DNA from: Bryobacterales bacterium
Lineage (GTDB): Bacteria; Acidobacteriota; Terriglobia; Bryobacterales; JACQDG01
Reading direction: 5' to 3'
DNA: 64,000 nt
NCBI GenBank assembly: GCA_035652135.1
Contig: DASREK010000015.1
Span: forward strand, 14,846-78,845
How positions within the stretch are numbered: position 1 is the stretch's first letter; each line of letters begins with the position of its first letter. Of the stretch, positions 31,807 to 64,000 are shown piece after piece. The notes below the pieces were generated by a model, which was not told the DNA's origin, searched no databases, and saw only the letters and a list, made by a program, of their open reading frames with translations. The position numbers and the translations under genes are program-made.

Positions 31807-31815
31807 CTGCCCTCC

Positions 31816-34967: not shown

Positions 34968-34971
34968 GTCT

Positions 34972-37112: not shown

Positions 37113-37164
37113 ACCCCGTCTCCAGCGTGCTGCTGCTGGCTCGAACTACTCGGGAGGGATTTAG

Positions 37165-38418: not shown

Positions 38419-38481
38419 CCCGTCCCCTTTTGCCGCGCGCCGGGCTCGGCCTGATCCGCCCCGCGTGCGCCGCACTCCGCC

Positions 38482-38497
38482 TGCAACGAAAGTACCA
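38482..38497 (-). promoter_or_regulatory. Sigma-54 (-24/-12) promoter candidate for the A-PCP operon
   Basis: The minus strand reads TGGTAC-TTTCG-TTGCA. GG and GC have the exact consensus spacing of TGGCAC-N5-TTGCW, with one mismatch in the -24 hexamer. The predicted TSS is near 38471, about 53 nt upstream of ATG 38418. Confidence 0.55.
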
Positions 38498-39019
38498 AAT
38501 CGCCGATAGTTACTAACAGTATTGGAAACCGGTCGCCGCAGAGAGCATTGCATCGCCGGCGCCCCCGGAAACCTTCTTGCCGGGAGCAGAAAGCTTCCAC
38601 ACTGAAGAGAATCTCCACTCCGCAGAGAGCGCCGCGCTTTCATATTTATGAACGGCCCGAATCCGGCGATTAAGGTGAAAGCCGGAGAGCGCTAAGGCGC
38701 TTTCCCAATAGGAAGTAGTACGCATAGCGGTTACAGTAACCCGTTGGGCAACGCAAGAGATTCTTGCCGTTGACTGGCCACGCATTGGTCTCCCGCACCG
38801 CCGCTCCTCTTCCTCTGCTCACGAGCTAAGGCGGCAAAGTTAGTTCGGCTCGTGCTCCTTTTACTGTGCGGCTCCAGCGTGGAGGGTGTGCCTTTTTTTG
38901 AAGGCTATGCGCCACAGGAACGTGTCTACGCTCCCGGATGATCCGACGACGCCCCAAGTTCCTCTCCCCCCAGATCAACGCCGGAATCAGCCCGACAAAT
39001 CCACTTTGTGAGGTAAAGA

Positions 39020-44821: not shown

Positions 44822-46402
44822 TTACCGAGAAATAGAAACGGCCGGCCCGCGCGGCCCAAACCGGCCGTCCACATCGAGAAAAGGACGTTTTGCCTCCGTC
44901 CTGGAGCCGGCGAAGGCCGCCATGACCCGGGAGTCGGTTTCATCTGCCTGGGCTGATACTCCAGCGACCTCAAGAAACTTCTGATTGCTGTAATAGAAGT
45001 CGCGATAGTCTGTCACCTCACCCGCTTCCAACGCGCTCTTGAGTTCGCGAATCCCGTCTTCCAGCGACCACTGGGACCGGAATCCAAGCTGGTTTTGTAT
45101 CTTCGTGAACGACACGCGATAGTTTCTATGATCCGCGTTATCGATGTTTTCTACGCAAATGCCCGGAAACTCATGACGAATTTTTTCCGCGACTTGCGAC
45201 AACGTAAAATTCAAACGCGGATCGCCGACGTTAAAGATTTGACCGCTGACGACTCCGAGCGGGGCGGTCATTACATGTTCAACAGCCGGCGCCACGTCCC
45301 GCACATGAAGAAATGGCCGCCACTGCTGGCCGTTGTAGATGGTGATCACTTTTTCCTGGTAAGCCTTGGCTGTCAGCAGATTTACTACCAGATCAAATCG
45401 GGGCCGATAGGAGTGCCCGAAGACGGTCGACAGGCGCAGAATTACAGGATGAAAGGACTCGCTGTGCGCTTCCAACAGCGCTTCTTCCGAATTGACCTTC
45501 GTCCGCGCATACAGCGACACCGGATTCACAGTCGCCCGCTCATCCACCAGCTCTTCACTGATTCCATACACACTGCAACTGGAAGCGAAAATGAATCGCC
45601 CGATACAATAGCCTTTGGCCACCTCAATTAACATCCTGGTGGCGGCATAGTTGACCTCGAGAGCCGTCTGGCGGTCTTGTTCGCAAGCGGGATCACCGAC
45701 GATGGCCGCCAGGTGAACAATGGCATGAACTCCCTTTACAGCTCCGACGACTGTTTGAATATTGCGGCAATCGCCAACGACCAGCTGGAGATTGGGATGG
45801 TTCAAAATATCCCGGATCGACGCATACCCATAGACGAGGCTATCCAGCAACCGCACGTTGTAGCCCCGATCGAGCAGCCGCCGGGTGAGTATTGATCCGA
45901 TGTATCCCGCTCCTCCGACGATTAGAACACTGGCCGGATCGGCAAGCCGACGCGGCGCAGTTTTCTCCACGGCACGCCGCGTCCGGCGGAAGGCGTCTTG
46001 GGCCGCACGAGCTAAAGTCACGGCAATAATGACCAGAGCCGCAAACCAGGCGGCCAGACTCTCAGAAACCAGACCTTCCTGAAAGACCAAGTAATTCGCC
46101 AAAAGATAAAACAACACAGCCAGGCCGGCGCCCTTGACAATAGCTGTCCGCCGATACCGAATAAAATAGAATCCTGGCTTCTGATAAAAGCCGCTGGCCA
46201 TAAAGACCGCAGGAAAGATAAGGGAAAGCGGCCAGAAGCAATGCCAATAATATTGCGGAAATTCGGTTGCGATGTTGTGCGCGGTTTGTTGGTCGCCCAG
46301 AATCACGTGAAATGTAACGGCAAACGCAAGAGCCATCGCCATGCACACGTGAACGAGGATAAAATCCAGCAGACAGGCCAAGCTAATCTTCCCTAGCGAC
46401 AT
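44822..46402 (-). CDS. Membrane-anchored extended-SDR NAD-dependent sugar epimerase/dehydratase/reductase
   Basis: An N-terminal region of about 150 aa has about 4 TM helices. It is followed by the Rossmann motif VLIVGGAGYIGS and the catalytic SSCSVYG...YARTK. Confidence 0.8.
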   Translation of the reverse strand: MSLGKISLACLLDFILVHVCMAMALAFAVTFHVILGDQQTAHNIATEFPQYYWHCFWPLSLIFPAVFMASGFYQKPGFYFIRYRRTAIVKGAGLAVLFYLLANYLVFQEGLVSESLAAWFAALVIIAVTLARAAQDAFRRTRRAVEKTAPRRLADPASVLIVGGAGYIGSILTRRLLDRGYNVRLLDSLVYGYASIRDILNHPNLQLVVGDCRNIQTVVGAVKGVHAIVHLAAIVGDPACEQDRQTALEVNYAATRMLIEVAKGYCIGRFIFASSCSVYGISEELVDERATVNPVSLYARTKVNSEEALLEAHSESFHPVILRLSTVFGHSYRPRFDLVVNLLTAKAYQEKVITIYNGQQWRPFLHVRDVAPAVEHVMTAPLGVVSGQIFNVGDPRLNFTLSQVAEKIRHEFPGICVENIDNADHRNYRVSFTKIQNQLGFRSQWSLEDGIRELKSALEAGEVTDYRDFYYSNQKFLEVAGVSAQADETDSRVMAAFAGSRTEAKRPFLDVDGRFGPRGPAVSISR

Positions 46403-46438
46403 TCTCGGTTCTCCGGGTATAGCGTTGCGGGCTGATTG

Positions 46439-47632
46439 TCAGGAGGCAGCGGCATACCCGCCGCGCGGCGGAAGGCCGCGGAGGGAGCGCCCATTCGAAA
46501 TTGCTCTCCGGACGGCTACGATTACGTCCGCCACATCGCTGTCGGACATTTTTGGATAGAGCGGAAGAGAAAGCAGTTCATTGTAGATTTTCTCGGCTAT
46601 AGGAAAGGACGCCTCCGAGCAGTGCAGCGCTCTACGGTAGTAGGGGTGCCGGTGCAGGGGGGTGAAATGCACGCTCGTTCCGATGTTCGCTTGTCTGAGC
46701 TTTTCGATCAACAAATCGCGGCCGCCAGCCATGGAATCCACGCGTAATGGATATAGATGATATGTATGCCTTCGGCCGGGCGCTTCCGCGGGCAAGCGAA
46801 TTCCCGGGACGTCGGCCAGGCCGGCCGCGTAACTTTCTGCAATCTCCCGGCGGCGCTCGATGAAACCATCCAGCCGTTGCAACTGATGAATTCCCAAAGC
46901 GGCCTGGATATCGGTCATGTTGTACTTGTAACCCGCTTCGTGAACCTCGTAATACCACGACCCAGGCTGCGTATAGCGTTTCCACGCATCGCGGCTCATT
47001 CCATGCAGGGAGAGCAGGCGGATTCTGCCAGCCAGCCAGTCGTCGTTTGTGGTGAGCATGCCGCCTTCGCCGGTGGTCATGTTTTTCGTCGCATAAAAGC
47101 TGAAAGCGACTGCCTGGCCGTGGGCGCCTATCTTCTTCCCGCCGTACTCGGCCCCGACCGCATGGGCGGCATCCTCCAGGATCAGAACGTCGTGTTTTTT
47201 TCCCAAATCGAGCAGAGCGTCGAGATCGCAGGCCTGGCCGGCGTAGTGAACAGGTATGATGGCGCGGGTGCGGCCGCTCAGGCTGCGGCGAATAGCGTCC
47301 AGGCTTATGTGAAAATTGTCGTCCACGTCCGCCAGAACCGGCGTCGCCCCGAGATGGGCGACGACGTTCGCCGTCGCGCAGAACGTGAGTGTAGGCACGA
47401 TGACTTCATCGCCCGGGCCGATGCCAAAGGCGGCCAGCGCGACGTGCAGCGCAGCCGTGCAGGAGCTGAGCGCGATGGCGTGCTTTACCCCGACGTATTG
47501 GGCGAAATCCTGTTCAAACTTCTTCACCTTGGGTCCGGTGGTGACCCAGCCGCGCTGCAAGCTGTCCACAACTTCCTGAATTTCCTCGGGCCCGATAAAA
47601 GGCTGGCAATACGGCAGAAATGCGCTGCGCAT
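46439..47632 (-). CDS. DegT/DnrJ/EryC1/StrS-family sugar aminotransferase (PLP)
   Basis: PFIGPEEIQEVVDSLQRGWVTTGPKVKKFEQDFA...SCTAALHVAL...SFYATKNMTTGEGGML, with the PLP lysine. Confidence 0.9.
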   Translation of the reverse strand: MRSAFLPYCQPFIGPEEIQEVVDSLQRGWVTTGPKVKKFEQDFAQYVGVKHAIALSSCTAALHVALAAFGIGPGDEVIVPTLTFCATANVVAHLGATPVLADVDDNFHISLDAIRRSLSGRTRAIIPVHYAGQACDLDALLDLGKKHDVLILEDAAHAVGAEYGGKKIGAHGQAVAFSFYATKNMTTGEGGMLTTNDDWLAGRIRLLSLHGMSRDAWKRYTQPGSWYYEVHEAGYKYNMTDIQAALGIHQLQRLDGFIERRREIAESYAAGLADVPGIRLPAEAPGRRHTYHLYPLRVDSMAGGRDLLIEKLRQANIGTSVHFTPLHRHPYYRRALHCSEASFPIAEKIYNELLSLPLYPKMSDSDVADVIVAVRRAISNGRSLRGLPPRGGYAAAS

Positions 47633-47677
47633 AAAACGTGATCCGGTTAACCGGTTTGTGAAAAAAAGCGAGCCTGG

Positions 47678-48664
47678 CTAAACGAGCTTTCGGAAAGTAA
47701 GACTGGCGCCGCACAGGCGGAAGCCGCACTTTTCATACAAGCGTCCGGCTGCCAGGTTTCGCAATTGAGTCCCGACCTCGACAATGCGAACCCCTTTCTC
47801 GCGAAACCATCGGAGCGCTCCCAGGGTCGCCAGGCTTGCCACTCCCTGGCCGCGCGCGTTTTCCGCGGTCGCTACCATCACGATCGTCCCAAACGACACG
47901 CCGATCGTGGAAGCGGCTTCCTGGTCGATCTTGCAGGTGACGTAGCCCAGGACGCTCTCGCCCTGGGAGGCAATGATTACAGCATCGGCTGCGCTGCCCA
48001 GGCACGAGTTTCGCAGCCAGGCCTCGTTAATGTGATCGGCGGCGGCCGAGCTCAGAGCGTAGTCGGCATGGAACCGGTCATAAATATAGGCCGTCCTGGC
48101 GATTTTCAGCACCTGGTCGAGATCGGATTCGCGGAAAAGACGCACGCAAACGCCGCTGGGGGTTGCGGCGGGCGGAGCTTCCAGATCCAGTCCATCCAGT
48201 GAAATCGCGAACGTCTGGATGCCGTCGATCAACTCGAAGCCCGACGCCTCCAGGGCATGAATGGCCGAAAAGTCTCCGGTATCCACGCGAGCCGTTAAGT
48301 GCCGCACGCCCTCCCGCTGGCACTGTTTGTAAACATCGCCGATCAAGCGGCGCTTGACGTGTCGGCTGTCCCAGTAATCGCCCTCCGCGACTAGGAACTC
48401 GAGACGGGCGCTTGGGAACCCGAACAACTCGCTGTCCCAGAGCAGCTTGCTCCAGCAAGCCGCGCCGCATAGGGACTGGCCGCTCCATTGCAACAGCAGA
48501 GAAGCTTGTTCGCTCGACAGTAAGCGCTCCACCCTTTTTTGAGAGAGCCGTTGAAAGGCTTCCGCTGGTGCCAGATCTTGGTAGACACGGCGGCGAGCCA
48601 GGTTTTCCACAATGAAGCGCACCGCTACCTCTGATTCCGGAAGAACCGCGAGGGAGTTACTCAT
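47678..48664 (-). CDS. GNAT N-acetyltransferase with an N-terminal extra domain (WecD-like sugar N-acetyltransferase, tentative)
   Basis: C-terminal GNAT core VMVATAENARGQGVASLATLGALRWFREKGVRIVEVGTQLRNLAAGRLYEKCGF. The start ATG 48664 overlaps the upstream stop (ATGAGTAA). Confidence 0.75.
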   Translation of the reverse strand: MSNSLAVLPESEVAVRFIVENLARRRVYQDLAPAEAFQRLSQKRVERLLSSEQASLLLQWSGQSLCGAACWSKLLWDSELFGFPSARLEFLVAEGDYWDSRHVKRRLIGDVYKQCQREGVRHLTARVDTGDFSAIHALEASGFELIDGIQTFAISLDGLDLEAPPAATPSGVCVRLFRESDLDQVLKIARTAYIYDRFHADYALSSAAADHINEAWLRNSCLGSAADAVIIASQGESVLGYVTCKIDQEAASTIGVSFGTIVMVATAENARGQGVASLATLGALRWFREKGVRIVEVGTQLRNLAAGRLYEKCGFRLCGASLTFRKLV

Positions 48665-50459
48665 GGGAGTGCACCGGCTGATTTTCAGCAAGCGATTCGG
48701 GCTGTGCCGAGACGTAGATGCCGCGCCGGCTGACCACGTACGGCGCCGTCTTCAGCAGAAGCTTAACGTCGAGCAGCATCGAGCGCTTCTCGACGTACTC
48801 CACATCCAGTTGTTTGCGCTGTTGCCACGGGATGGAATTGCGGCCGTTGAGCTGAGCGAGACCCGTAATGCCAGGCTTGACGTCCAGGCGCCGCTTCTCG
48901 GCGGGAGTATAAAAGCTGAACTGATCCGGGAGTTCCGGCCTCGGACCGACCAGGCTCAGATCACCCGCGAGCACGTTGATCAACTGGGGCAACTCATCCA
49001 GGCTTGCCTTGCGCAGAAATCGCCCCACCGCGGTCAGCCGCGGATCCCGGTCGCCGTTGAAAGTGGAGCCGTCCGCGTTGCGTAGATCGGCGCACCCGGC
49101 GCGCATGGTGCGAAATTTATAAATGGTGAAGGGAACGCCGTAGCGTCCCAACCGGCGCTGCCGGAAGAGCGCTGGCCCCGGAGACGTCAGCCGGATCGCC
49201 GCCGCAATCAAGAACATCAGGGGACTCAGCAGCAGCAGCAGCAAGCCCGAAATCGCGACATCCAAAACGCGCTTCGCCGCCGGATACAACTTTGCTTTAT
49301 GCAACGCGGGGTTTTTGGTTCGCGTTTCCAGTTCTCTGACGGCTGCGCAGTACTCGTCTGCATATTTTTCGAGCATGGTTTGCTCCGTATACGACGCAAG
49401 ATAGACACTGCGAGCGGTGCGGCCCAAGCGTTCGGCCAAGCTCGGGTCAGCGATCAGCTTCTGCATGGCCTCTGCCAGCGCACCGTCGTCGCCCGGCGGT
49501 ACAAGCAGCGCCGCAGAGCCGTTTCGGGTCGCCTCACAGTTGCTGGAGATGGCCGTAGCCACGATCGGTTTGCCGGCAGCCATGGCTTCCAATAGTGCTA
49601 TCGAAAGGCCTTCCCGCACGCTCGGAAGGACCACCAGGTCGCTCGCCGCCAGCAGATCTCCGACATCGTTCCGGAATCCGAGAAACCGCACTCGCGGCGC
49701 AATGCCCAGTTCTACTGCCAGCGCGGCGATACCCTCCCGGATCGGGCCGCTGCCGGCCAGGCACACGCTCAGAGGCAGGCCGCGGCTGATTAACACCGAG
49801 GCGGCTCGCAGCAGATCCTCAATTCCTTTCAGCGGCGCCAGGCGCCCTGTCGAAAGTACAACTACCTCCTTAGCTCCCGCCTCCAAGCTCGCTCTTACCG
49901 CATCCCTGCCGGCAGCGGCTTCGACTCTCGATTGGGGAATTCCATTAGGTATAGCCCTGATCTGATGACCGCCGGCAATGCGCAATCGCAGGCCCCACCG
50001 GCGGTGAAACTCGCTGACAGTGAAGATCCGTCGGCACCAGCGGGAGGCCGCGCGCTCCAAAACGGAACAGGCTGCAATGACGAGCCGCGACGAGCGCTCG
50101 TGAAAGGCGAAACCGTGGGCGGTGTGAAAGATGATAGGAACTCCGGCGAGCCGCGCCGCCAGTCGTCCGACAAAGCCGCCCTTGGAGGTGTGCGTGTGCA
50201 CAATGGTGTAGCGCGCCGTTTTGAGAAAGCGATATAGGCGAAGCAAGCCCACAACGTCGCGGACAGGACGGATGCTGCGCCAGATTACATCGAGCGCCAC
50301 AACCCCGATTCCCGCCTCGCGCAGCGCGGCCTGAAACGTGGCATCGGTGGTCAAGACATCGACATCCCAGCCCATGCTTTTTGCGTGACGGGCCAGTTGG
50401 AGGATAATGATGGAACCGCCGCCAAACTTCGATTCGCCCACAATGTGAAGGACTTTCAT
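48657..50459 (-). CDS. Fusion protein: N-terminal GT4-type glycosyltransferase plus C-terminal small phosphoglycosyl transferase (bacterial sugar transferase, initiating enzyme)
   Basis: Residues 1-~370 are GT-B/GT4-like (MKVLHIVGESKFGGG...VLPSVREGLSIALLEAMAAGKPIV). Residues ~390-600 carry a re-entrant helix (VLDVAISGLLLLLLSPLMFLIAAAI) and then FRQRRLG..G.PFTIYKFRTM...DELPQLINVLAGDLSLVGPRP. Confidence 0.88.
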   Translation of the reverse strand: MKVLHIVGESKFGGGSIIILQLARHAKSMGWDVDVLTTDATFQAALREAGIGVVALDVIWRSIRPVRDVVGLLRLYRFLKTARYTIVHTHTSKGGFVGRLAARLAGVPIIFHTAHGFAFHERSSRLVIAACSVLERAASRWCRRIFTVSEFHRRWGLRLRIAGGHQIRAIPNGIPQSRVEAAAGRDAVRASLEAGAKEVVVLSTGRLAPLKGIEDLLRAASVLISRGLPLSVCLAGSGPIREGIAALAVELGIAPRVRFLGFRNDVGDLLAASDLVVLPSVREGLSIALLEAMAAGKPIVATAISSNCEATRNGSAALLVPPGDDGALAEAMQKLIADPSLAERLGRTARSVYLASYTEQTMLEKYADEYCAAVRELETRTKNPALHKAKLYPAAKRVLDVAISGLLLLLLSPLMFLIAAAIRLTSPGPALFRQRRLGRYGVPFTIYKFRTMRAGCADLRNADGSTFNGDRDPRLTAVGRFLRKASLDELPQLINVLAGDLSLVGPRPELPDQFSFYTPAEKRRLDVKPGITGLAQLNGRNSIPWQQRKQLDVEYVEKRSMLLDVKLLLKTAPYVVSRRGIYVSAQPESLAENQPVHSHE

Positions 50460-50492
50460 ATTCCGGATCCCGAACAGCCGCCGGCTGCGGGG

Positions 50493-53113: not shown

Positions 53114-53119
53114 GGCCGG

Positions 53120-55423: not shown

Positions 55424-55438
55424 ATGCTTTCGAAGTCG

Positions 55439-56473
55439 TTATCGGGGCAGACCCACGCGCCAGATCGTAATGCCCGTGCCTACATTCAACGCCGCTTCCG
55501 CCGCCCGGAGGGCCACATTTCTGGTCGCGTTATTCGGAACGAATAAGATGTCCTCCGCCTCCATCATGATGTCCCTGGATTTCCCGGCCAATATCTGCTT
55601 GATGTTGACAGCAATCTCCACGCGCTTTTCGTCGGAGGCGCTTGTACGAAGAATCTTGGCCTTCTCTGGGGCCGCGTTCGGTCCGAGTCCCTCCGCCAGA
55701 GAAAGGGCCTGCAATACGGAAATATGCTCGCGCTCGCTCAAGGCGAAGCCGCCCGATTTGTGAACGTCGCCGATCACATACACTGTTTGCGCCTGGGAGA
55801 CCGAGATGACATCGTCCGGTTCGATCAGTATGTTGGCGCTGGGATTGGAACCTTCCATCAGCTCTCGCAGGCTTACCTCGGCCATACTGAAACGCTTGGT
55901 TGGATCTTGCACCGCGGTCCGGAGCGGTATTTGCCCGCGGTCTGACCGCCGGGTGATTCGCACTGTATTGCCCGCGTCATTTCTGACGCCCTCGGCCATG
56001 GAGAGGACCTCGATGAGCGTCTTCCGCCCGCGAAGCTGCTGAATCCCCGGCTTGTTGACCGCGCCAATCACCGACACGGGCTGGCTGTGAAAATCAGTGA
56101 CCGACACCGTGACCTGGGGCTCCTTCACAAATACGCGCAGGCGGCTTATTATCTCCGCCTTAATCTGCTCGGGTGTCCGGCCAAGCGCCAGAATTCTGCC
56201 TATCAGCGGTACATCCAAATACCCCTCGGAATCCACGCGGATGGGTTTGGCGGAAATTTCTTCCGAGCCGAGCGCCCAAACGCTAAGTTCGTCGCCTGGC
56301 CCGAGCATATAAGCTTCTGCGTTGCCGGGGTCGATCGGACTCGCCAGCCCGCCCGCGGCGGCCTGATGTTGGGGCCGGCCGGAAGGCGCCGCCAGCAGCA
56401 TCATAGCCAGCATCAATGCGATGGAGCCTTCAGCCTTCAGAGGCCACAGGTCCCGGAATAGCTTCGACGGCAT
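55439..56473 (-). CDS. Polysaccharide export protein (Wza-like, Poly_export plus SLBB domains)
   Basis: YMLGPGDELSVWALG... is the Poly_export signature, and SLBB-like repeats follow. The start is set to ATG 56473 (MPSKLFRDLWPL...). Confidence 0.85.
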   Translation of the reverse strand: MPSKLFRDLWPLKAEGSIALMLAMMLLAAPSGRPQHQAAAGGLASPIDPGNAEAYMLGPGDELSVWALGSEEISAKPIRVDSEGYLDVPLIGRILALGRTPEQIKAEIISRLRVFVKEPQVTVSVTDFHSQPVSVIGAVNKPGIQQLRGRKTLIEVLSMAEGVRNDAGNTVRITRRSDRGQIPLRTAVQDPTKRFSMAEVSLRELMEGSNPSANILIEPDDVISVSQAQTVYVIGDVHKSGGFALSEREHISVLQALSLAEGLGPNAAPEKAKILRTSASDEKRVEIAVNIKQILAGKSRDIMMEAEDILFVPNNATRNVALRAAEAALNVGTGITIWRVGLPR

Positions 56474-56477
56474 AAAA

Positions 56478-57083
56478 CTAACTCCACGAGATTTCCCGCT
56501 GCCGTAAAACCAGATCCTCGTTGATCTCAACCAGCACCGAACGTTGCAGCAGAGTAATGGACAAAAGCAGCCGGAAGGGCCTCGTAGAATCCACCACGAC
56601 GCCCTCCACCCCGGCCAGCGGGCCGCTGGCGATCCGCACGCGCTCGCCCGCAGTTAGAAAGGCGTGGGGCTGCATTGGAAAACTGGCGCGCGCCGCCGAT
56701 TGCAGCGCTTTTATCTCGTTGTCGTCCACTGGGGTCGGCACGCGCCCCGCACCGACCAGCCGGATGACGCCCGGAGTCATCAGAATAGGCAGCCGCACCA
56801 GCGCGTCGAACCGGCAAAATACATATCCGGAAAACAATGCAAGCTCAAACTGGCGGAGGCGCCTGCCATACCGGTGTTGACGCCGGTAAAGCGGCACAAA
56901 CGTTTCGTAGCCTTTGTACCGCAACAGACGCGATACCGCTTTCTCATGGCGTGGCCTGACGGCCAGCGCAAACCACTCCAGTGCCTCCGAATCATCGCGT
57001 AGCCCGGCGCTTGGGGTTTCAGGTTCGGGCCGCCATCTATTCATCAGTGGAGTAAGAGGGCGTTGGGAGTTTCCTGGAAACAT
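56478..57083 (-). CDS. NusG-paralog transcription antiterminator (RfaH/UpxY-like); first gene of the polysaccharide operon
   Basis: NGN domain WFALAVRPRHEKAVSRLLRYKGYETFVPLY...FSGYVFCRF, and KOW motif GERVRIASGPLAGVEGVVVD. The start is ambiguous (ATG 57083 or 57044). The ORF-track start 57197 lies upstream of the predicted sigma-54 promoter. Confidence 0.8.
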   Translation of the reverse strand: MFPGNSQRPLTPLMNRWRPEPETPSAGLRDDSEALEWFALAVRPRHEKAVSRLLRYKGYETFVPLYRRQHRYGRRLRQFELALFSGYVFCRFDALVRLPILMTPGVIRLVGAGRVPTPVDDNEIKALQSAARASFPMQPHAFLTAGERVRIASGPLAGVEGVVVDSTRPFRLLLSITLLQRSVLVEINEDLVLRQREISWS

Positions 57084-57145
57084 AGCTACCGCAATCTCAG
57101 TTATCAGGAACTGAGTCCACGCTGCTCCCTGACGTTCAAGTCCAA

Positions 57146-57161
57146 TGCAACGCCAATGCCA
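57146..57161 (-). promoter_or_regulatory. Sigma-54 (-24/-12) promoter candidate for the polysaccharide operon
   Basis: The minus strand reads TGGCAT-TGGCG-TTGCA. GG and GC have the exact consensus spacing, and TGGCA and TTGCA are intact. The predicted TSS is near 57135, which is 52 nt upstream of ATG 57083 and 91 nt upstream of ATG 57044. Confidence 0.62.
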
Positions 57162-57400
57162 GTCGGCCTCACCGCGTGGGTTGCCCAGGCAAATCAAGCG
57201 CTCTCCGTATCGTTACAGAGTCCGGAGAGGCGCGATGACAGCTTTCGTGGCTCCCGGCAAAGTGGAAGGCCGGGTGACAACTGTGGCATCGCGGTTCTCT
57301 ACGGCGGCCAAGTGGAGGGCTGCGCTGTATAGTCGTACAATTTTGCATCTTTCGTTTCGATGCGTTTCTGGCAATTCCAGCGAAGAATCTCAATCACTTT

Positions 57401-57439
57401 TTTTGAAAAGAAGATATGTTCGTCTATCTTTTTTCAAAA
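57401..57439. promoter_or_regulatory. AT-rich imperfect palindrome (possible activator/IHF-type site) about 240-280 nt upstream of the -24 element
   Basis: TTTTGAAAAGAAGATA (57401-57416), an 8-nt spacer, then TATCTTTTTTCAAAA (57425-57439). The arms are complementary except for one extra G. It is the most AT-rich patch I saw in the window. Confidence 0.3.
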
Positions 57440-58499
57440 CCCAGGCAAGCGCCTGAGGTGCGATTTCTTTGATATCGAGGCGGCGGCATTGCCACGCCAC
57501 AGCGTTCAATCAGGTTTGACCAGCCTGCCAGCCGCACGAAATTCCTTTGGTAACAAACGGTGCGGCGCATTCAGATGCGGGCCGCGGACGTATGTACGTT
57601 TACGGTTGCGTAACCCCAAAAATGCAAAATCGACGAGCGAATGTCGGCAGCGTATGTTAGCCCTCTACTTTTTTGGCGGCCGAACTCTTTATACTGCGGT
57701 AGTGTTGTTTCCAGGGTAGTTGTTTCGAGCAGCGCTGCCGTTTCAATTTTAAGGCGCGCTGGGAGTGCCGAACCAAGCGTCAGGCCATTGCGTAGCGGAG
57801 TGGCCAGAGCCGGACAATCCGGTAGCACGCTGATTCCACTTTCGAGTGGAATCGCGGCGCAGATAGATCTTCTTATGAAGGACACTATGGCGCTAGCAGG
57901 GACAGAAGGTGAAGCTTCAAGCGTGGCGCAAACCCACTTCTCCGCGGATAGGCAACGGAACTGTGTGCGGCGCCCGCGCTTCCCGCGCCCGGTCGCGCCT
58001 TCGGCGTATCTCCAGGAATCGGGAGTCGTGCCGCTGGTCATCGAAACTCCTGCAAAGTGGCATCCATACCCTCTACGCACAAAGAAAGCGCTCCCGGAGG
58101 AGTGGGGAGATTCACTTCGCACGCAAGGGACTCAGAAGCCCGTTATCAACATCGAGCCAGCCGCTGGCGGGCGGGAAAGATTTCGCTTTTTAGCGCCCAG
58201 GCTCCCGTCAAATACTGCCAGTCCTGAGGGAGTCAGCGAGGCAATGCGGATTGAACCAGGTTCTTCTCCCGATCACGTCAATAGAAACGCGAGAAACGTG
58301 TGGGGCGCGGGAGACGGAACTAGTCCTGAGTTGCGACCCGGAAGCGCTCGCCCCAGTGGCCCCTGCGCGGGAATCCCGCAGTCGATTCGAACAATGCATA
58401 GTCGAGACATCACGAAGAAAACTGCGTTCGGCAAAGGCTTCGTGACGCTTGTAAGTTTGCCCTTTCTCCAGTTGACCAGCGTGGAGGCTATGGTACCCA

Positions 58500-59882
58500 A
58501 TGAACAGACGCCGAGTTCTCGTAGTAGATGACGACAAGAGCATCCTTGCCTATCTCTCCGATCTTTTGGCCGATCGCTACGACGTAGACTGCCTGGATTC
58601 GGGCGAAGGCGTCGTGCCCTATTTGGGCTCCGGCGCCCGCCCGTCTTTGATCCTGCTGGATTTGATGATGCCGGCGGTCAGCGGTCTGGATGTGCTGGCC
58701 GCAATCGAACGCCTGAGCCGCCGGCCGCCCGTGATTGTTCTGTCGGCGATCGGCCAAATCAACACCGTAGTGAGAGCGATGAAGCTTGGCGCATCGGATT
58801 ATCTGGTCAAGCCGGTGGAAGAACAGGACCTCTATCAGGCGATCGAAAACGCATTAGAAGAGTCCGATGACCCAGAAGAAACGGCGGCGCCGGCCGCTGC
58901 CTGCGGGGCCGACATCATTTCTGCCAACCGCCAGGTGCTCCGTGTCAAGCAAATCGCCGCGCAGGTAGCGGACGCAGAGGTTCCTGTTCTCTTGCTCGGA
59001 GAGTCCGGGGTGGGCAAAGACGTATTTGCCCGCTATATCCATGCCCGATCGAGCCGCAGCGCCGCGCCGTTCGTCAAGGTCAATTGTGCGGCGCTCCCGG
59101 CGGACTTGCTGGAATCGGAGCTGTTCGGGTATGATCGCGGGGCCTTTACAGGAGCTCTTCGGGAAAAGCCGGGGAAGTTTGAACTTGCTGGCCGGGGAAC
59201 GCTTTTTCTGGACGAAATCGGTGAAATGAGCCCCGTGCTCCAGGCTAAACTCCTGCACGTTCTTCAGGACGGAGAATACAGCCGCCTCGGAAGCACACGG
59301 AGCACGCTTTCTCAAGCACGCATTATCGCTTCGACCAACAAGCGCATCGAAGAGGCGGTATCGAAGGGCGAGTTCCGCGAGGATTTGTACTTCCGTCTGA
59401 ATGTAATTCGTCTGCAAATTCCTCCCCTTCGCGAGAGGCGCGAGGATATTCTGCCGTTGTCGCATTTCTTCTTGGAAAAATACCGCCCTCAATACCCGCG
59501 GTCGCCTCGGCAGTTGCCTCGCGAGCTGATCCAGGCCATTCTGCTGCATTCCTGGCCCGGCAATGTGCGGCAGCTTGAAAACACGATTAAACGTTTCCTC
59601 GTGCTGCCTGACCTCGATTTTGCGCTGGCCGAACTGCGGGAATCTGGCACTCCGTTTAATGTCAGCTCGCCGCCGCAAAATCGTTCCCTGAAGCGTGTAT
59701 CCGCTCTGGCGGCAGAAAGAGCAGAAAAAGAGGTGGTCCTTCGCACGCTCGATGAGACGAACTGGAACAGAAAGCAGGCAGCCCGCGAGCTCAATATTTG
59801 CTATAAAGCCCTGCTGAACAAACTTCGAAAATGGGATATACCGGGACGGTCCAAAGGCCCCATCGAGCCTTCCGCGCTCTAA
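58500..59882 (+). CDS. Sigma-54-dependent response regulator (REC plus AAA+ enhancer-binding domain plus Fis-type HTH; NtrC family)
   Basis: The receiver has VLVVDDD...LILLDLMMP...VLSA...YLVKP. The AAA+ domain has GESGVGKDV, ESELFGYDRGAFTGA (GAFTGA) and RVIASTN-like (RIIASTN). The C-terminal HTH reads NRKQAARELNICYKALLNKLRKW. Confidence 0.92.
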   Translation: MNRRRVLVVDDDKSILAYLSDLLADRYDVDCLDSGEGVVPYLGSGARPSLILLDLMMPAVSGLDVLAAIERLSRRPPVIVLSAIGQINTVVRAMKLGASDYLVKPVEEQDLYQAIENALEESDDPEETAAPAAACGADIISANRQVLRVKQIAAQVADAEVPVLLLGESGVGKDVFARYIHARSSRSAAPFVKVNCAALPADLLESELFGYDRGAFTGALREKPGKFELAGRGTLFLDEIGEMSPVLQAKLLHVLQDGEYSRLGSTRSTLSQARIIASTNKRIEEAVSKGEFREDLYFRLNVIRLQIPPLRERREDILPLSHFFLEKYRPQYPRSPRQLPRELIQAILLHSWPGNVRQLENTIKRFLVLPDLDFALAELRESGTPFNVSSPPQNRSLKRVSALAAERAEKEVVLRTLDETNWNRKQAARELNICYKALLNKLRKWDIPGRSKGPIEPSAL

Positions 59883-60039
59883 CCGCTGCCACGGCGCTCC
59901 ACGCGCGGATGCCGGTCAACCTGCTCAACTGGCCAGAGCCGGGAGCGCTCGCCGCGGGGCAATATTCCAGACAAGGTTCTGCTCGCGCCCAGAGGGGAGT
60001 TTCACGGCCGCCTGAATTCACAGCTTTGCGGCCGGATTA

Positions 60040-60642
60040 TCAGGCCCAGATGTTCGACACAAAAACGAGTTTCACCGGCTTGAATCCCAGCCGGAAGTGA
60101 CTCGCGAGCGAAAGCTCATTCCCCTGCTCCACATAGGTCAGCACCCGACGTCGGCCGAGATCCTCCATCAGAGCGGCAAGATGGCTCTTAAACCTAAGCC
60201 ATACGCCGCTCCCGCGGTATTCGGGCAATATGAACGCATCGTAAGCATAGATACAGTCGCATGGGACCGTAATACGGTACTTAAACGGCTCGGCGACGTG
60301 GCGCGGCCTGATGGAGAACCACTCGTATCCAATGATGCCACCGCCAAGTTGGGCAACAACACAATGATCGCCAGCCTGAAAGCGCTCTAGGAACTTCTGA
60401 TATTTATTTTCTCCGCACATTGCGAGGCGATTGAGGTCATTCAGCGACCCTGCCCGAATTTCTCCCGGGCCGCGCAACATGGATGATGGAATATAGGGCG
60501 GATGATCGAGCTTCAGCAGGTACAGGCGTCCGATTTTTAGACAATGAAACGAGAGCCGGTCAACAAGGGCGCGGAGAATGCATAAGAAGGGCTTTCGGCC
60601 CAGCCTCGCTATTTTCCGGGAACGTAAGGCGGCTCTCGCCAC
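60040..60642 (-). CDS. GNAT-family N-acyltransferase
   Basis: GGGIIGYEWFSI...AYDAFILPEYRGSGVWLRFKSHLAALMEDLGRRRVLTYVEQGNELSLASHFRLGF. It starts 9 nt after the NadE-like stop. Confidence 0.7.
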   Translation of the reverse strand: MARAALRSRKIARLGRKPFLCILRALVDRLSFHCLKIGRLYLLKLDHPPYIPSSMLRGPGEIRAGSLNDLNRLAMCGENKYQKFLERFQAGDHCVVAQLGGGIIGYEWFSIRPRHVAEPFKYRITVPCDCIYAYDAFILPEYRGSGVWLRFKSHLAALMEDLGRRRVLTYVEQGNELSLASHFRLGFKPVKLVFVSNIWA

Positions 60643-60651
60643 GGCAATGCG

Positions 60652-61641
60652 CTACACTTCGGGGACCGGCGCCACCAGCACGGGCTGCCGGTGCAGATAG
60701 CGCGTGGCATTCCTCTTCGAGTCGATCAGTTCGTAGACCCGCTGTACCTGTGCCGGCGAGAGGCCTGCTTCCGCCGCCACTTCCTCCACCGGAGCGCCGC
60801 AGTTTTTTCCGTAGAGGCAGAGATCCATTTTGTCATAAGGCAAGGAAAAGTAAAATTCTTCCTGCGACTGATGCAGTGGATAGGTATCCGTGGTTGGATT
60901 GCGCCGCCGGATTTCTTCCGGTATGCCCAGATATTCGGCGAGCTGGTAAACCTCGGACTTATACAGATGAGCGATCGGCTTGAAATCGGCCGCGCCGTCC
61001 CCGTTTTTGACGAAAAATCCCTGGTCATATTCCAGCCGGTTGGGTGTACCTGCCACGGCGTACCCCAGAAGGTCCGCATAGTAGTATTCCATCATCTTGC
61101 GCGTCCGCTGCTTGAAGTTGGTGGCGGCCACGATCTGTGAATACGCCTCCGCCGTGAGCCTTGCCTTGGTTTGAACGTGCGACGGCGATTCCACGACGAT
61201 CGAGTACACCGCGTAGCGCGGTCCGCCGAGCAATTCAGGCAGAACGAGTTTACACTTATAGCCCTCGCCATACTCGGGAACCACACTGCGAATGGCCTCG
61301 TCGCGGCGCCGGTAGCAGCCGGCGGCGGCGAGGATCGGGGTAATGTCCTCGACGACGGATCGAATTCCCAGTTGATCGGCGACAAGCTTGCCTAAGCGAA
61401 GGCTGTCGGCGGACGAATCCGCCTCGGGAAGAAACAAACCGAGCACCCGGTCCCTTCCCAGTGCGCGCGCGCAAAGGGCGGCTACGACGCTGCTGTCAAC
61501 CCCGCCGGAGAGCGCAACGACGGCGCCTTTGCGTCTCAAATCGCGCCGCACGATCTCGCGAATCGCGCTCTCCAGGCGCAGGGCGGCACCGCCGGCATCC
61601 ATCTTTAAAAGCTCGGCGGAAAACCTCGTAGAGATGTTCAT
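60652..61641 (-). CDS. NAD synthetase (NadE)-like PP-loop ATP pyrophosphatase/amidoligase
   Basis: PP-loop VALSGGVDSSVVAAL and NadE-like downstream blocks (VAGTPNRLEYDQGFFVKNGDGAADFKPIAHLYKSEVYQLA). Its start overlaps the ligase stop (ATGA). Confidence 0.78.
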   Translation of the reverse strand: MNISTRFSAELLKMDAGGAALRLESAIREIVRRDLRRKGAVVALSGGVDSSVVAALCARALGRDRVLGLFLPEADSSADSLRLGKLVADQLGIRSVVEDITPILAAAGCYRRRDEAIRSVVPEYGEGYKCKLVLPELLGGPRYAVYSIVVESPSHVQTKARLTAEAYSQIVAATNFKQRTRKMMEYYYADLLGYAVAGTPNRLEYDQGFFVKNGDGAADFKPIAHLYKSEVYQLAEYLGIPEEIRRRNPTTDTYPLHQSQEEFYFSLPYDKMDLCLYGKNCGAPVEEVAAEAGLSPAQVQRVYELIDSKRNATRYLHRQPVLVAPVPEV

Positions 61642-63161
61642 CGTTGTTCTCCGGCTGAGGAAGCCAACTCACGCCTGCTGATCTTGCCGTTGGCGCTCTT
61701 GGGAAGCGCGGCCCGAAATTCCACAAACTTGGGTATCATGAAGTCTTCCAGATGCCGGGAGCAATGGCGCAGAATCTCCTGCTCGCTGATGGCAGATCCG
61801 TCGCGCAACGTCACCACCGCCTTCACAGCCTCGCCCAGCACCGGATCGGGCACACCGATCACCACAGCCTCCGCAATACCCTCCAGGCCATATAAAACTT
61901 CTTCGACCTCCCTCGGGCTCACTTTCTCCCCTTTGGTCTTGATGATGTCATCCTTGCGCCCTACAAAGTAGAGATAGCCCTCTTCATCCATTTGAAAGAG
62001 ATCTCCGCTGTAGAGCACTCGCTCTCCCGGCATTGGCCCCGGCTTCAGCACCTTTTCGGTTTCCTCGGGCAGGCCCCAATAGCCCTTCATTACGTTGGAT
62101 CCCCGGATTACCAGTTCTCCAACTGTGCCCGGGCCGACCCGCTGGCCCCGCTCGTCTACGATGTAAACTTCTTCATTCGGTATGGCCTTTCCGACCGACT
62201 TAGGCCGAATGTCGATCTGATCGGGCGGAAGATACGAAACCCGTTTGCACTCTGTGAGCCCGTACATCGAGTAAATCTTGACGTGCGGAAAAATCTTCCG
62301 TAGCTGCGCGATCTGGTGAACCGGCAGCGCAGCCGCCGTATTCGTGATATAACGCAAGGCCGGAAAACGATAAGTGCTCAGATCCATTTGCAGCAGTATC
62401 GCGGCCATGGTCGGCACCAAAGGAAGCCCTGTCACCTTCTCTCGAATCATTGTCTCCAACACAGCGCGCGGATATGTGAAGGAGCGCTCCAATACAAGCG
62501 TGCCGCCGATCTGGAAAGCCATCAGAACCTGATACAAGCCATAGTCGAAGGATAGGGGCAGAACGTTTAAAATCACGTCATCGGGAGTGTTCTCCAAATA
62601 GGTCGTGATGGAGGTCGCCGCCGAAACAATGTTCAGGTGGGTGAGCATCACGCCTTTCGGCCTTCCCGTGGACCCTGACGTGTAAATAAGGGCAGCCAGG
62701 TCGATGTCGATGCATTGCTTCTCCGGAGGGGTGTCCGGCGAAACCGAATCTCCGACAATACGGTCCCATTCGGCGTCCGCCAACACGATTGATTTAAGGT
62801 GGGAAAGCCCAGAGAGCTGCTGCTCGAGCCCGGCGATCCGGGCGGAATCAGTGATCAGCGCACAAGCCCGGCAGTCGTTCAAAATATAGGCCAGCTTTTC
62901 AGCCTTTGTGCTCGGATGAATGACGAGGAAAATCGCCCCGGCCTTGAGAATCGCGAAAAGGGCCACGACCGCTTCCGGCGAGTTTTCCAGTTGAACGGCG
63001 ACCCGATCGCCGCGGCGCACACCCTGTCGAATCAGGGCATGCGCAAGCCGGTTGGACTGGCGTTCGATCTCGATGTAGGCGAGCCGGCGCGACCCGCACA
63101 CGAGGGCAGTCTTTTCGGGCGATTTTTCGGCGCTGCGCTCGAGAAAGGTTTCCACCTGCAC
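61638..63161 (-). CDS. AMP-forming acyl-CoA/acyl-ACP ligase (ANL superfamily)
   Basis: LIYTSGSTGRPKGVMLTH, YGLTE, SGDLFQMDEEGYLYFVGRKDDIIKTKGEKVSPREVE and a C-terminal NGKISRREL. The start is set to GTG 63161, 5 nt after AGGAGGG. The ORF-track start 63260 would overlap the ACP gene. Confidence 0.88.
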   Translation of the reverse strand: MQVETFLERSAEKSPEKTALVCGSRRLAYIEIERQSNRLAHALIRQGVRRGDRVAVQLENSPEAVVALFAILKAGAIFLVIHPSTKAEKLAYILNDCRACALITDSARIAGLEQQLSGLSHLKSIVLADAEWDRIVGDSVSPDTPPEKQCIDIDLAALIYTSGSTGRPKGVMLTHLNIVSAATSITTYLENTPDDVILNVLPLSFDYGLYQVLMAFQIGGTLVLERSFTYPRAVLETMIREKVTGLPLVPTMAAILLQMDLSTYRFPALRYITNTAAALPVHQIAQLRKIFPHVKIYSMYGLTECKRVSYLPPDQIDIRPKSVGKAIPNEEVYIVDERGQRVGPGTVGELVIRGSNVMKGYWGLPEETEKVLKPGPMPGERVLYSGDLFQMDEEGYLYFVGRKDDIIKTKGEKVSPREVEEVLYGLEGIAEAVVIGVPDPVLGEAVKAVVTLRDGSAISEQEILRHCSRHLEDFMIPKFVEFRAALPKSANGKISRRELASSAGEQR

Positions 63162-63171
63162 GCTGTCCCTC

Positions 63172-63441
63172 CTACGCCGCCGGTTGGAGCTTGGTTTGAA
63201 TGAATCTGCTGAGGTTGTTGATCGAATCCAGATTGTCCGGCACCAGATCTTCATCTTCAATTTTGATCTGATATTGCCGCTCCAACAAACTCACCAGTTC
63301 CAGAACGCTCGTGGAGTCGATAATGCCTTTTTCCAAAAAAGAGTCGTCGTCCGAAAATTTGCCGTCGTCTTGGCCGAAAAGAAGATTTTCCACCACCAAA
63401 GAGCGCAATTCCTGATTGAGTGTTTGATTAAGTGTTTCCAT
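63172..63441 (-). CDS. Acyl carrier protein (stand-alone)
   Basis: 89 aa from ATG 63441 (METLNQTLNQELRSLVVENLLF...). It has the phosphopantetheine site LEKGIIDSTSVLELV and an acidic helix II. Confidence 0.85.
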   Translation of the reverse strand: METLNQTLNQELRSLVVENLLFGQDDGKFSDDDSFLEKGIIDSTSVLELVSLLERQYQIKIEDEDLVPDNLDSINNLSRFIQTKLQPAA

Positions 63442-64000
63442 AGCCGGATCTTTTGCTGAAACTCCTGATGAATTGATCAATCACAAGCTGAGTGGAGAGG
63501 ATGCCGATGAGCGCCATGTTATCCCGAATGCTCCCGGAGCCGCCCCAGCGAAACCTGTTGATGAGCCCTTGCACAGGCGCGGGATTGAAGATGCCGTCTT
63601 GTTTGAGACGGCCCGGGGAGAGAAGCTCTTCCACATAATCGTAGGGGGCTCCTTCAAAAAAACTCCTTGCCTCGGGCGCTCGATAAGGCTGTTTTGCCCT
63701 TTGCTTAATGGATTTCGGTATTAAGCCGTTGACGCACTCCTTCAACAGATATTTTTCATTGAGGCCCCGCATCTTCAGCGGCGGCGGCAGGGCGGCGGCG
63801 AACTCCACCACGCGGTAGTCGAGGAATGGCATGCGGCACTCCACACCATGAGCCATAGCCACGCGATCGCCCTGCGAAGACAGAATATAGCCGGGAAGTA
63901 AGTAACTCGCTTCGAGGTACTGCGACTGTGAGAAACCATCCCACTCGAAATAAGCGGGCGGAAGCAGAGCTTCCAAGGCTGCGTAACAATCCCGAGTCGC
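63428..64000 (-). CDS. Asparagine synthase (AsnB)-family amidotransferase, C-terminal part; the N-terminus lies beyond the right window edge
   Basis: DRVAMAHGVECRMPFLDYRVVEFAAALPPPLKMRGLNEKYLLKE...AKQPYRAPE is the AsnB synthetase-domain C-terminus. The reading frame stays open to the window edge. Confidence 0.85.
   Translation of the reverse strand, partial: ATRDCYAALEALLPPAYFEWDGFSQSQYLEASYLLPGYILSSQGDRVAMAHGVECRMPFLDYRVVEFAAALPPPLKMRGLNEKYLLKECVNGLIPKSIKQRAKQPYRAPEARSFFEGAPYDYVEELLSPGRLKQDGIFNPAPVQGLINRFRWGGSGSIRDNMALIGILSTQLVIDQFIRSFSKRSGYGNT

Follow-up and report, generated by a model that had tools for sequence, protein, structure and literature searches.

What is an enzyme of the NAD synthetase (NadE) family doing in an operon that also encodes a stand-alone carrier protein, an AMP-forming ligase and a glutamine-dependent amidotransferase? 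This question is raised by one end of a 64,000-nucleotide (nt) stretch of Bryobacterales DNA (the window, whose proteins also served as queries and reference for the comparisons), where the listing of open reading frames (ORFs) places five ORFs, all on the minus strand, at positions 60040-64000 (Table 1). The NadE-like protein is identical to the NCBI entry HZS49466.1, named "NAD(+) synthase [Bryobacterales bacterium]". A first-pass annotation of this DNA had doubted that the protein is the housekeeping enzyme and had regarded its gene as an extension of a trio formed by the genes for an AsnB-type amidotransferase, an acyl carrier protein (ACP) and a ligase. Our analysis points to a different arrangement, which is, to judge from sequence comparison, probably new: a PP-loop enzyme of the NadE family, co-opted for a pathway based on a carrier protein, in a widespread and undescribed four-gene module.

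Based on their junctions, the five genes probably form one operon, itself probably sigma-54-dependent, in a Bryobacterales exopolysaccharide (EPS) locus. The tight coupling described earlier is found exactly in the sequence: asnB and the ACP gene overlap by 14 nt (..GGCTATGGAAACACTTAA), a 10-nt gap (gagggacagc, with a Shine-Dalgarno-like GAGGGA) separates the ACP gene from the GTG start of the ligase gene, the ligase and NadE-like genes share an ATGA overlap, and 9 nt lie between the NadE-like gene and the GTG start of the gene for a GNAT-fold acyltransferase. No internal sigma-70-like promoter was found in 59500-64000 (0 against 1.8 expected). The 89-, 507- and 329-amino-acid (aa) products are also present in the independent gene calls of a JGI contig (L091, 99.93% identical to window positions 50261-64000 and extending the window rightward) and of L088, from a relative with 94% identity in the NadE-like protein. 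For the GNAT gene, the JGI call starts at an internal ATG and gives only 146 aa; the 200-aa long form is supported because the N-terminal 54 aa are conserved. The asnB gene, of which the window holds the 3' part, encodes 643 aa in L091, starting with MCGIAG at L091:5122 (about window position 65359, i.e. about 1.36 kb beyond the right end), and is preceded there by a 548-bp intergenic region and then by two RND-transporter genes.

The NadE-like protein has a great many relatives: over 8,000 homologues came up in searches, with identities of about 70% being common, clustering at 50% identity left 430 representatives with E <= 1e-30, and at least 577 loci were recovered when a single genome was scanned for each species. 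Our neighbourhood survey covers the best 80 of these at least 577 loci, of which 57 were evaluable (at least 6 kb on both sides). The synteny statistics come from tblastn with the window proteins, ORF clustering, in which genes were lost to shadow ORFs in GC-rich DNA, having been set aside. The best 80 loci span at least nine phyla (Acidobacteriota, Nitrospirota, Planctomycetota, several classes of Pseudomonadota, Actinomycetota, Myxococcota, Gemmatimonadota, Elusimicrobiota and Armatimonadota), and 46 of the 57 evaluable loci have all four genes (for AsnB, ACP, ligase and NadE-like enzyme) inside a stretch of 7 kb, a recurrence which argues that their juxtaposition is not due to chance. The co-occurrence of NadE-like, ACP and ligase genes to which the first-pass annotation had drawn attention is widespread. 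The order of the genes is not fixed, since there are more than ten arrangements, some with divergent strands (writing A for AsnB, C for carrier protein, L for ligase and N for NadE-like enzyme: ACLN 22, ACNL 10, NALC 5, divergent laCN 3, and others). The first three neighbourhoods opened had the order AsnB-ACP-ligase-NadE or AsnB-ACP-NadE-ligase, all of them in polysaccharide loci. The fact that the four genes stay together through repeated rearrangement is strong evidence for a functional unit.

As judged from these neighbourhoods, the conserved unit is thus made of four genes, encoding the AsnB-type amidotransferase, a carrier protein of about 89 aa, the adenylating ligase and the NadE-like enzyme, the last being a core member of the module rather than an extension of a trio. 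Nor are all five genes generally syntenic, as had been expected, because the GNAT gene is an accessory, restricted to close relatives plus a small number of further loci. The identity of the NadE-like proteins of the best 80 loci to that of the window (58-71% across phyla) is unusual for a housekeeping enzyme and points to horizontal mobility, the module being transferred together with its locus. In the literature (a limited full-text library, so that this is weak evidence) we found no account of the module or of a non-NAD role for this NadE subfamily, nor any paper that disputes the name "NAD(+) synthase", and none of these genes is mentioned in Haft 2006.

Other genes recur in the neighbourhood of the module less frequently, namely those for an SGNH-like protein (17 of the 80 loci), a 360-aa protein without known function (16), an exosortase (about 10) and FemAB-like proteins (8). 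A homologue of the HemK/PrmC-family N5-glutamine methyltransferases is found inside the cassette in five proteobacterial loci (L033, L044, L047, L054 and L072; Table 1 gives the L047 gene). These gammaproteobacterial and related loci begin with an XrtB-type EpsA regulator and a phosphoglycosyltransferase, followed by NadE-AsnB-ligase-HemK-ACP-SGNH, and the methyltransferase gene hints at a carboxamide product that becomes N-methylated.

The association goes in some genomes as far as gene fusion. Among the 50%-identity representatives there is a full ligase-NadE fusion of 849 aa (P0122), and locus L087 encodes a fusion of NadE with a phosphopantetheinyl transferase (PPTase; P0123). A third protein (P0129, 510 aa), present in two independent assemblies (L085/L086), has the architecture NadE-AMP-binding_C-peptidyl carrier protein (PCP), in which the NadE-like domain, still above the NF002048 cut-off, stands in place of the N-terminal core of an adenylation (A) domain. 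Its cluster (L085:6207-11896, equal to that of L086) encodes an A-PCP protein, P0129, a GDSL protein, two alpha/beta hydrolases that are distant kin of hydrolases 2 and 1 of the exosortase A-associated sets, and a PPTase, and is without an AsnB gene. Some apparent NadE-AsnB "fusions" may be read-through of adjacent genes; the others, taken as domain architectures, tie the NadE-like domain to carrier-protein chemistry.

Is the NadE-like protein itself still built as an NAD synthetase? It scores above the cut-offs of NF002048 (499.7 bits, cut-off 313) and of the nadE domain model TIGR00552 (153.5 bits, cut-off 63.65) and below those of the NadE equivalog models (NF010587, 170.3 against 255; NF001979, 81.5 against 250; NF010588, 82.1 against 479). 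The SGGVDSS PP-loop reported for it is indeed intact in the sequence, and its AlphaFold2 model (pLDDT 84.4) has the fold of the short NadEs (Foldseek matches to 2E18, 3FIU, 1XNG and 3P52; TM 0.78-0.86, target-normalised, with 0.82 for 2E18; identity 20-29%). Canonical enzymes, among them Bacillus subtilis NadE with its sequence verified against PDB 1EE1, were aligned with the NadE-like family, and motifs were counted over 83 members of the latter. The machinery for adenylation is kept, including the PP-loop, the Mg/ATP residues and the equivalents of Glu162, Lys170, Asp173, Asp177 and Lys186, and so are the Asp of the GDG motif, the N133/R137/R139 helix (N-x-K-x-R-T-R) and the Phe167/Phe168 pair. 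Three other canonical motifs are absent from all members: G[FY][FY]TKxGDG (0/83) appears as GFFVKxGDG in 83/83 (a TK to VK change), P[ST]AxL (0/83) is replaced by PTTDT in 75/83, and the C-terminal EHK motif, whose His lies on the adenine and ribose of nicotinic acid adenine dinucleotide (NaAD) in B. subtilis NadE, the source of part of our assignment of residue roles, is found in 0/83. Additionally, the family has a specific insertion of about 50 aa (residues ~106-155, an extra beta-sheet at ~106-161 in the model), with no counterpart in the canonical sequences aligned, in which C109, R112, R113 and R118 are invariant and the motif C[YF]xRRD occurs in 68/83.

In the human and Mycobacterium tuberculosis enzymes, an Ala and a Leu of the P2 loop contact the nicotinic ring, and a His or Phe of the C-terminal helix contacts the adenine and ribose of NaAD (PMC6946656). 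By motif alignment, the P2-loop residues correspond to the Ala and Leu of P[ST]AxL and the helix residue to the His of EHK. The comparison of NaAD-binding residues with canonical NadE, proposed earlier as a way of telling the two apart, gives a divided answer: the three motifs are replaced throughout the family, but it still has the GDG Asp, the N/R/R helix and the FF pair. With part of the NaAD site thus preserved, the argument from the active site is suggestive and short of proof.

These retained features, i.e. the aromatic pair and substrate-helix residues, together with the NadE fold, the full adenylation machinery with the GDG Asp and the scores above the NF002048 and TIGR00552 cut-offs, are what a genuine NH3-dependent NAD+ synthetase would display, and such an enzyme could serve the NAD+ demand of an EPS pathway (sugar dehydrogenases, epimerases) or regenerate from NaAD an NAD consumed as reagent; a preprint even reports NAD synthetase genes beside some terminal-amidation gene clusters and speculates that NAD is the amide donor. 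(The terminal amidation domain was also considered as a relative and rejected, its fold being unrelated; it contributes here nothing beyond the notion that NAD might donate the amide.) We nevertheless hold NAD synthesis to be very unlikely, given the replacement of three nicotinyl/adenine-site motifs in every family member and the ~50-aa insertion, the translational coupling and cross-phylum synteny with ACP, ligase and AsnB genes in shuffled orders, the fusions to ligase, PPTase or PCP in some genomes, and the 58-71% cross-phylum identity, which points to transfer with the locus. No other NadE homologue was found within the 64-kb window. Synteny, the rare fusions and the substrate-site motifs together uphold the earlier opinion that this is a specialised paralogue rather than the housekeeping enzyme, and we propose that it is a neofunctionalised NAD synthetase paralogue, with the substrate site remodelled and the adenylation chemistry intact. 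The short NadEs (Pyrococcus horikoshii PH0182, 2E18; Helicobacter pylori, 1XNG; Campylobacter jejuni, 3P52) and the Francisella nicotinamide mononucleotide (NMN) synthetase (3FIU) share with it the fold, SGGxDS and GDG; unlike the short NadEs, it has the insertion, VK and PTTDT, lacks EHK, and has its gene among those for ACP, ligase and AsnB in polysaccharide loci.

The ligase gives the best indication of what the pathway may handle. Its best NCBIfam match, TIGR03098 (518.5 bits), is below the cut-off of 592.35, and in the PDB the whole-length ranking is headed by LgrA with its second A domain (residues 1227-1715), which we take to be glycine-activating. Glycine specificity was rejected, as the rank of LgrA reflects general A-domain similarity and VinN is ahead by 14 orders of magnitude over the pocket: with the A4-A5 specificity segment, VinN (3WV4/3WVN) is matched at E 5e-23 and the next protein at 4e-9. 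VinN binds (2S,3S)-3-methylaspartate as a beta-amino acid through D230, F231, S299 and a shortened loop with K330/R331 (PMC11253843). In the window ligase, these residues (D230/F231/S299/K330/R331) align with D/Y/T/K/R, free of gaps through the beta13-beta14 loop (SFDYGLY/TNTAAALP/TECKRVS, against SWDFGLY/TNSAAALP/TECKRIS in VinN). The enzyme has all the marks of a VinN-type pocket, namely the amine-binding Asp, a bulky aromatic residue at GrsA position 236, Ser/Thr at 301 and the shortened beta13-beta14 loop with Lys-Arg, and, based on this pocket, the acid that it attaches to the carrier protein is probably an aspartate-like amino-diacid.

Among the cassette ligases two classes can be distinguished. 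Those of class 1, 45-70% identical to the window enzyme, have the code D-Y-Y-P-T-T-M-R-V, and their substrate would be an aspartate-like amino acid. In those of class 2 (32-40% identical, mostly in loci of the ACNL order) the Asp is replaced by C/A/V and the pocket Arg is kept; they probably load a different acid, which, from the loss of the Asp, may be a diacid or hydroxy-diacid without an amine. Class 2 loci include L003, L009, L010, L013, L014, L017, L020, L022, L023, L025, L027, L028, L035, L041, L046, L059 and others. M322 and R330 (GrsA numbering) are identical in 64/64 aligned ligases of both classes, and this conserved pocket Arg agrees with a substrate in which one carboxylate is still free once it has been loaded. 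In VinN it is the free alpha-carboxylate that the Arg binds; the product on the ACP is then decarboxylated by VinO.

The carrier protein (89 aa) has a PP-binding domain with the conserved Ser of the DS phosphopantetheine-attachment motif (GIIDSTS), and homologues were detected in most related loci. Its best NCBIfam matches are the specialised ACPs OlsHI and AmcB, both below cut-off. The full-length AsnB from L091 scores 523.7 bits with TIGR01536 (cut-off 267.1); the second-best NCBIfam match, the XrtA/PEP-CTERM amidotransferase TIGR03108, is below cut-off (430.3 against 816.9). The Cys2 nucleophile was read from the L091 sequence and the SGGLDS loop was seen in the L001 orthologue. The best PDB match is the hydroxyamidotransferase TsnB9 (7YLZ, 245 bits), and, by analogy with this closest solved relative, AsnB-type enzymes do act on acids other than aspartate. 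OxyD makes the malonamyl starter unit by amidation of a thioester-bound diacid, and WbpS and WbtH, AsnB-type enzymes of O-antigen loci, are thought to form uronamides. All of these, like the TIGR03108 enzymes, share with the module enzyme an Ntn-glutaminase domain (with the MCG start) and a PP-loop synthetase domain, and we know of no member of these families that is paired with a NadE-family enzyme. In L093, the EPS locus that holds the cassette has a second AsnB-type gene (L093:14372-16177, 601 aa) a few genes further downstream, so that AsnB-type enzymes can occur twice per locus; this is consistent with separate roles, e.g. uronamide formation and action on the carrier-bound group.

The resemblance of the AsnB-ACP-ligase trio to the exosortase A-associated gene sets, suggested in the first-pass annotation, holds at the level of kinship and not of membership (TIGR03098, 518 against 592; TIGR03108, 430 against 817), and no exosortase homologue was found in the window by tblastn with the L012 exosortase. 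The set of ligase (TIGR03098), ACP and decarboxylase dependent on pyridoxal phosphate (TIGR03099) found with exosortase A may be likened to the module in the same way as VinN/VinL/VinO (below), with the ligase here below the TIGR03098 cut-off.

For the fifth protein, the AlphaFold2 model (pLDDT 88.5) shows a clear GNAT fold, with Foldseek matches to VipF (E 1e-8), the sugar-amine acetyltransferase WecD, a glucosamine N-acetyltransferase and MshD. Homologues were found only in the closest relatives (85% identity), in one Nitrospira metagenome-assembled genome and in a small family of 39 proteins. In L093 the GNAT gene is flanked by those for the NadE-like enzyme and the ligase, stop and start codons overlapping, and in L094 (7732-8735) a homologue is translationally coupled (ATGA) to the gene of an ACP homologous to that of the window, with no ligase, AsnB or NadE-like gene nearby. 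The L094 pairing suggests that the GNAT works directly with this type of carrier protein. From these arrangements, we regard the GNAT as accessory to the module; it is probably the enzyme that transfers the group bound to the carrier.

Taken together, these data lead us to propose, with a probability of roughly 0.55, that the operon contains a four-gene module making an amide-bearing side group for a polysaccharide; the substrates, the order of the steps and the acceptor are those we infer from the sequences. In the first step, to go by its specificity residues, the ligase would activate an aspartate-like amino-dicarboxylic acid and bind it as a thioester to the phosphopantetheine (Ppant) arm of the carrier, leaving one carboxylate free. 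In the second, the free carboxylate would be adenylated and then converted to a carboxamide by the ATP-dependent amidating enzymes, of which the NadE-like one is a single-domain enzyme of the ammonia type and the AsnB-type one is glutamine-dependent, with Cys2 and SGGxDS intact; either or both may act on the tethered group, and we leave the carboxylates undivided between them. In the third, the amide-bearing aminoacyl group would pass from the carrier to a polysaccharide repeat unit, here by way of the GNAT and elsewhere possibly by the SGNH-like, FemAB-like or 360-aa protein. The earlier suggestion of a carrier-bound carboxylate that is amidated and then transferred agrees with the VinN-like specificity residues of the ligase.

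Several points weigh against this proposal. Two amidating enzymes are unexplained if the substrate has a single free carboxylate. The NadE-like protein does pass the curated NF002048 and TIGR00552 cut-offs and retains residues lining the NaAD site (the FF pair, the equivalents of N175/R179/R181, and D215), and our mapping of NaAD contacts rests on motif alignment rather than on the structure of a complex. Fusions are rare, and the architecture of P0129 (NadE, A-domain C-terminal subdomain (Asub), PCP) was a singleton in a search with P0129 and was down-weighted. Finally, because class 2 ligases lack the amine-binding Asp, an aspartate-like substrate cannot hold for all loci.

The first of these difficulties leads to other ways of dividing the work. 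The NadE-like enzyme might amidate a soluble substrate, such as a nucleotide-uronic acid at its C6 carboxylate or an amino acid in free form, with AsnB alone working with the ACP, or with the two roles reversed. The difficulty of employing two amidating enzymes on one tethered diacid, the putative nature of any contact between the NadE-like protein and the ACP, the uronamides attributed to WbpS and WbtH, and the UDP-glucose dehydrogenase gene that adjoins the cassette in L003 would all suit such a scheme, which we still regard as unlikely: the ACP-NadE adjacency persists as the other genes move (ACNL, laCN, CNAL), NadE-PPTase and NadE-Asub-PCP fusions exist, and in L085 the NadE-like domain is found with carrier proteins, without AsnB or obvious sugar genes. 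The coexistence of two "amidating" enzymes would also be explained if the NadE-like enzyme adenylated a carboxylate for attack by a nucleophile other than ammonia, either the amine of a carrier-bound amino acid or, in a LarE-like or thioamide-forming reaction, a sulfur chemistry involving Cys109. This residue is invariant within the family-specific insertion (C[YF]xRRD in 68/83), there is a weak match to LarE at the level of the PP-loop (31 bits), and PP-loop enzymes acting on thiotemplated intermediates exist, such as CtaC of closthioamide biosynthesis. Yet sequence and fold are closest to the NH3-dependent NadEs and the conserved neighbourhood has no sulfur-relay genes, which makes this alternative quite unlikely. 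Keeping to the amidation of a carrier-bound group, a more specific version can be formulated, tentative and in our estimation possible rather than probable, in which the NF002048 enzyme is the first of the NadE family to act on a carrier-tethered amino-diacid instead of a pyridine nucleotide, the Ppant arm lying in the ADP-ribose groove; the basic insertion would dock the carrier, and the exopolysaccharide would come to bear an isoasparagine-like (aspartate amide) group.

The proposed pathway can be compared with known systems. In VinN/VinL/VinO (vicenistatin) there are likewise a stand-alone adenylating enzyme and a stand-alone ACP, and the VinN recognition residues are conserved here; unlike that system, the module has two amidating enzymes and a polysaccharide rather than polyketide context, and no decarboxylase was found among its recurrent neighbours. 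By analogy, it resembles the VinN/VinL/VinO logic with amidation of the free carboxylate replacing decarboxylation. The Dlt system (DltA/DltC/DltB/DltD) and the Vibrio cholerae O1 tetronate genes (RfbK/L/M/N/O) also use an adenylating enzyme and a small carrier to decorate a surface polymer, and the SGNH-like partner of 17/80 loci recalls DltD. They differ from the module in that no membrane-bound O-acyltransferase (MBOAT) was seen in the module loci, the amidating enzymes have no counterpart in them, and the amino acid is another one.

With regard to expression, the rightward extension into L091 reveals a sigma-54-type -24/-12 element (TGGCACGGAGTGTGCA) 147 nt upstream of the asnB ATG, outside the window. 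In the locus, three sites have at most one mismatch to TGGCAC-N5-TTGCW (0.63 expected), all of them intergenic or just upstream of the likely start of an operon; at up to two mismatches there is no enrichment (8 found against 10.3 expected), and we give weight only to the set with at most one mismatch and to the conservation footprint. The asnB-proximal site lies within an island of about 40 nt, near-perfectly conserved in L088, while the remaining spacer is far less conserved. The sigma-54 scan envisaged in the first-pass annotation has thus returned a conserved -24/-12 block, and a sigma-54 promoter upstream of the operon is likely. Convergent with the operon is the gene of a sigma-54-dependent response regulator, which is a candidate regulator of it from its position and family (TIGR02915, the PEP-CTERM-box response regulator, 312 bits, below the 502.6 cut-off; other sigma-54 activator families: AtoC 355.7, NtrC 344.9, NifA 326). 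A second site, TGGCATTGGCGTTGCA, with one mismatch, is located at 57147-57162 on the minus strand (L091:13319-13334), immediately ahead of what is likely to be the true start of the UpxY/RfaH-like antiterminator gene, the first gene of the wza-wzc operon; both operons flanking the response regulator may therefore be sigma-54-dependent. Between the antiterminator and the regulator, a stretch of about 1.3 kb has no assignment apart from a 296-aa ORF (57641-58531, plus strand) that runs 32 nt into the start of the response-regulator gene and is called in L091 and L092; it has a low-complexity composition and matches nothing in Pfam or NCBIfam.

Downstream, on the same strand, NCBIfam matches define the EPS locus (Table 1). 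Its amino-sugar genes (PRK11658/PseC-like matches of 412 and 405 bits, a WecD-like match of 71.9 bits, and a member of the GalE/dTDP-glucose dehydratase family) could supply the amine acceptor, a link drawn from their position in the locus. The GT4-phosphoglycosyltransferase fusion is a single ORF of 600 aa, in which a TIGR03088-like (PEP-CTERM-associated) GT4 glycosyltransferase is joined to a polyprenyl glycosylphosphotransferase domain. The window also has an acidobacterial VWFA-domain protein and a second small thiotemplated gene set (30661-38643, minus strand), which includes additional unknown proteins and whose Sfp/HetI-type PPTase could act on the operon's carrier protein as well.

Table 1. 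Coordinates of the operon, of its surroundings in the window and of one gene in a related locus.
Feature	Position	Strand	Match or context
AsnB-type glutamine amidotransferase, 3' part, 190 codons	63428..>64000	-	PF00733, 122 bits
Stand-alone carrier protein, 89 aa	63172..63441	-	PF00550, 31.6 bits
AMP-forming ligase, 507 aa, GTG start	61638..63161	-	PF00501 + PF13193
NadE-family PP-loop ATP pyrophosphatase, 329 aa	60652..61641	-	PF02540, NF002048
GNAT-fold acyltransferase, 200 aa, GTG start	60040..60642	-	PF00583, 21.8 bits (cut-off 20.7), marginal
Sigma-54-dependent response regulator	58500..59882	+	NCBIfam; convergent with operon
UpxY/RfaH-like antiterminator		-	EPS locus
Wza-like exporter		-	EPS locus
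Wzc-like co-polymerase/kinase		-	EPS locus
Wzy-like protein		-	EPS locus
Flippase		-	EPS locus
GT4-phosphoglycosyltransferase fusion	48657-50459	-	EPS locus
SDR-type sugar dehydratase/epimerase, DegT/PseC-type aminotransferase, WecD-like acyltransferase	44822..48691	-	NCBIfam; amino-sugar genes of EPS locus
ATP-grasp protein	35820-37112	-	Second thiotemplated set
Sfp/HetI-type phosphopantetheinyl transferase	34972-35829	-	Second thiotemplated set
A-PCP protein of the nonribosomal peptide synthetase type	33093-34967	-	Second thiotemplated set
Cytochrome P450	31816-33117	-	Second thiotemplated set
HemK-type methyltransferase	L047:14450-15373		Between ligase and ACP genes

The name "NAD(+) synthase" has been given automatically to thousands of these proteins (the searches gave over 8,000 homologues, and at least 577 genomes at species level have relatives), which are probably mis-annotated at scale. 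To our knowledge, the NadE family is regarded as essentially monofunctional, the Francisella NMN synthetase being its sole known variant, and a member working in a thiotemplated pathway would, if confirmed, widen the chemistry of the family. The VinN/VinL/VinO-like logic also offers a rationale for the long-unexplained ligase, ACP and decarboxylase genes associated with exosortase A. As far as we know, the biosynthesis of amide-bearing aminoacyl substituents on exopolysaccharides is largely undescribed, and the module provides a concrete route to them. If the more specific version of the proposal is true, the isoasparagine-like group would be a previously unrecognised polymer decoration, and in exosortase loci it might provide the free amine for the attachment of PEP-CTERM proteins.

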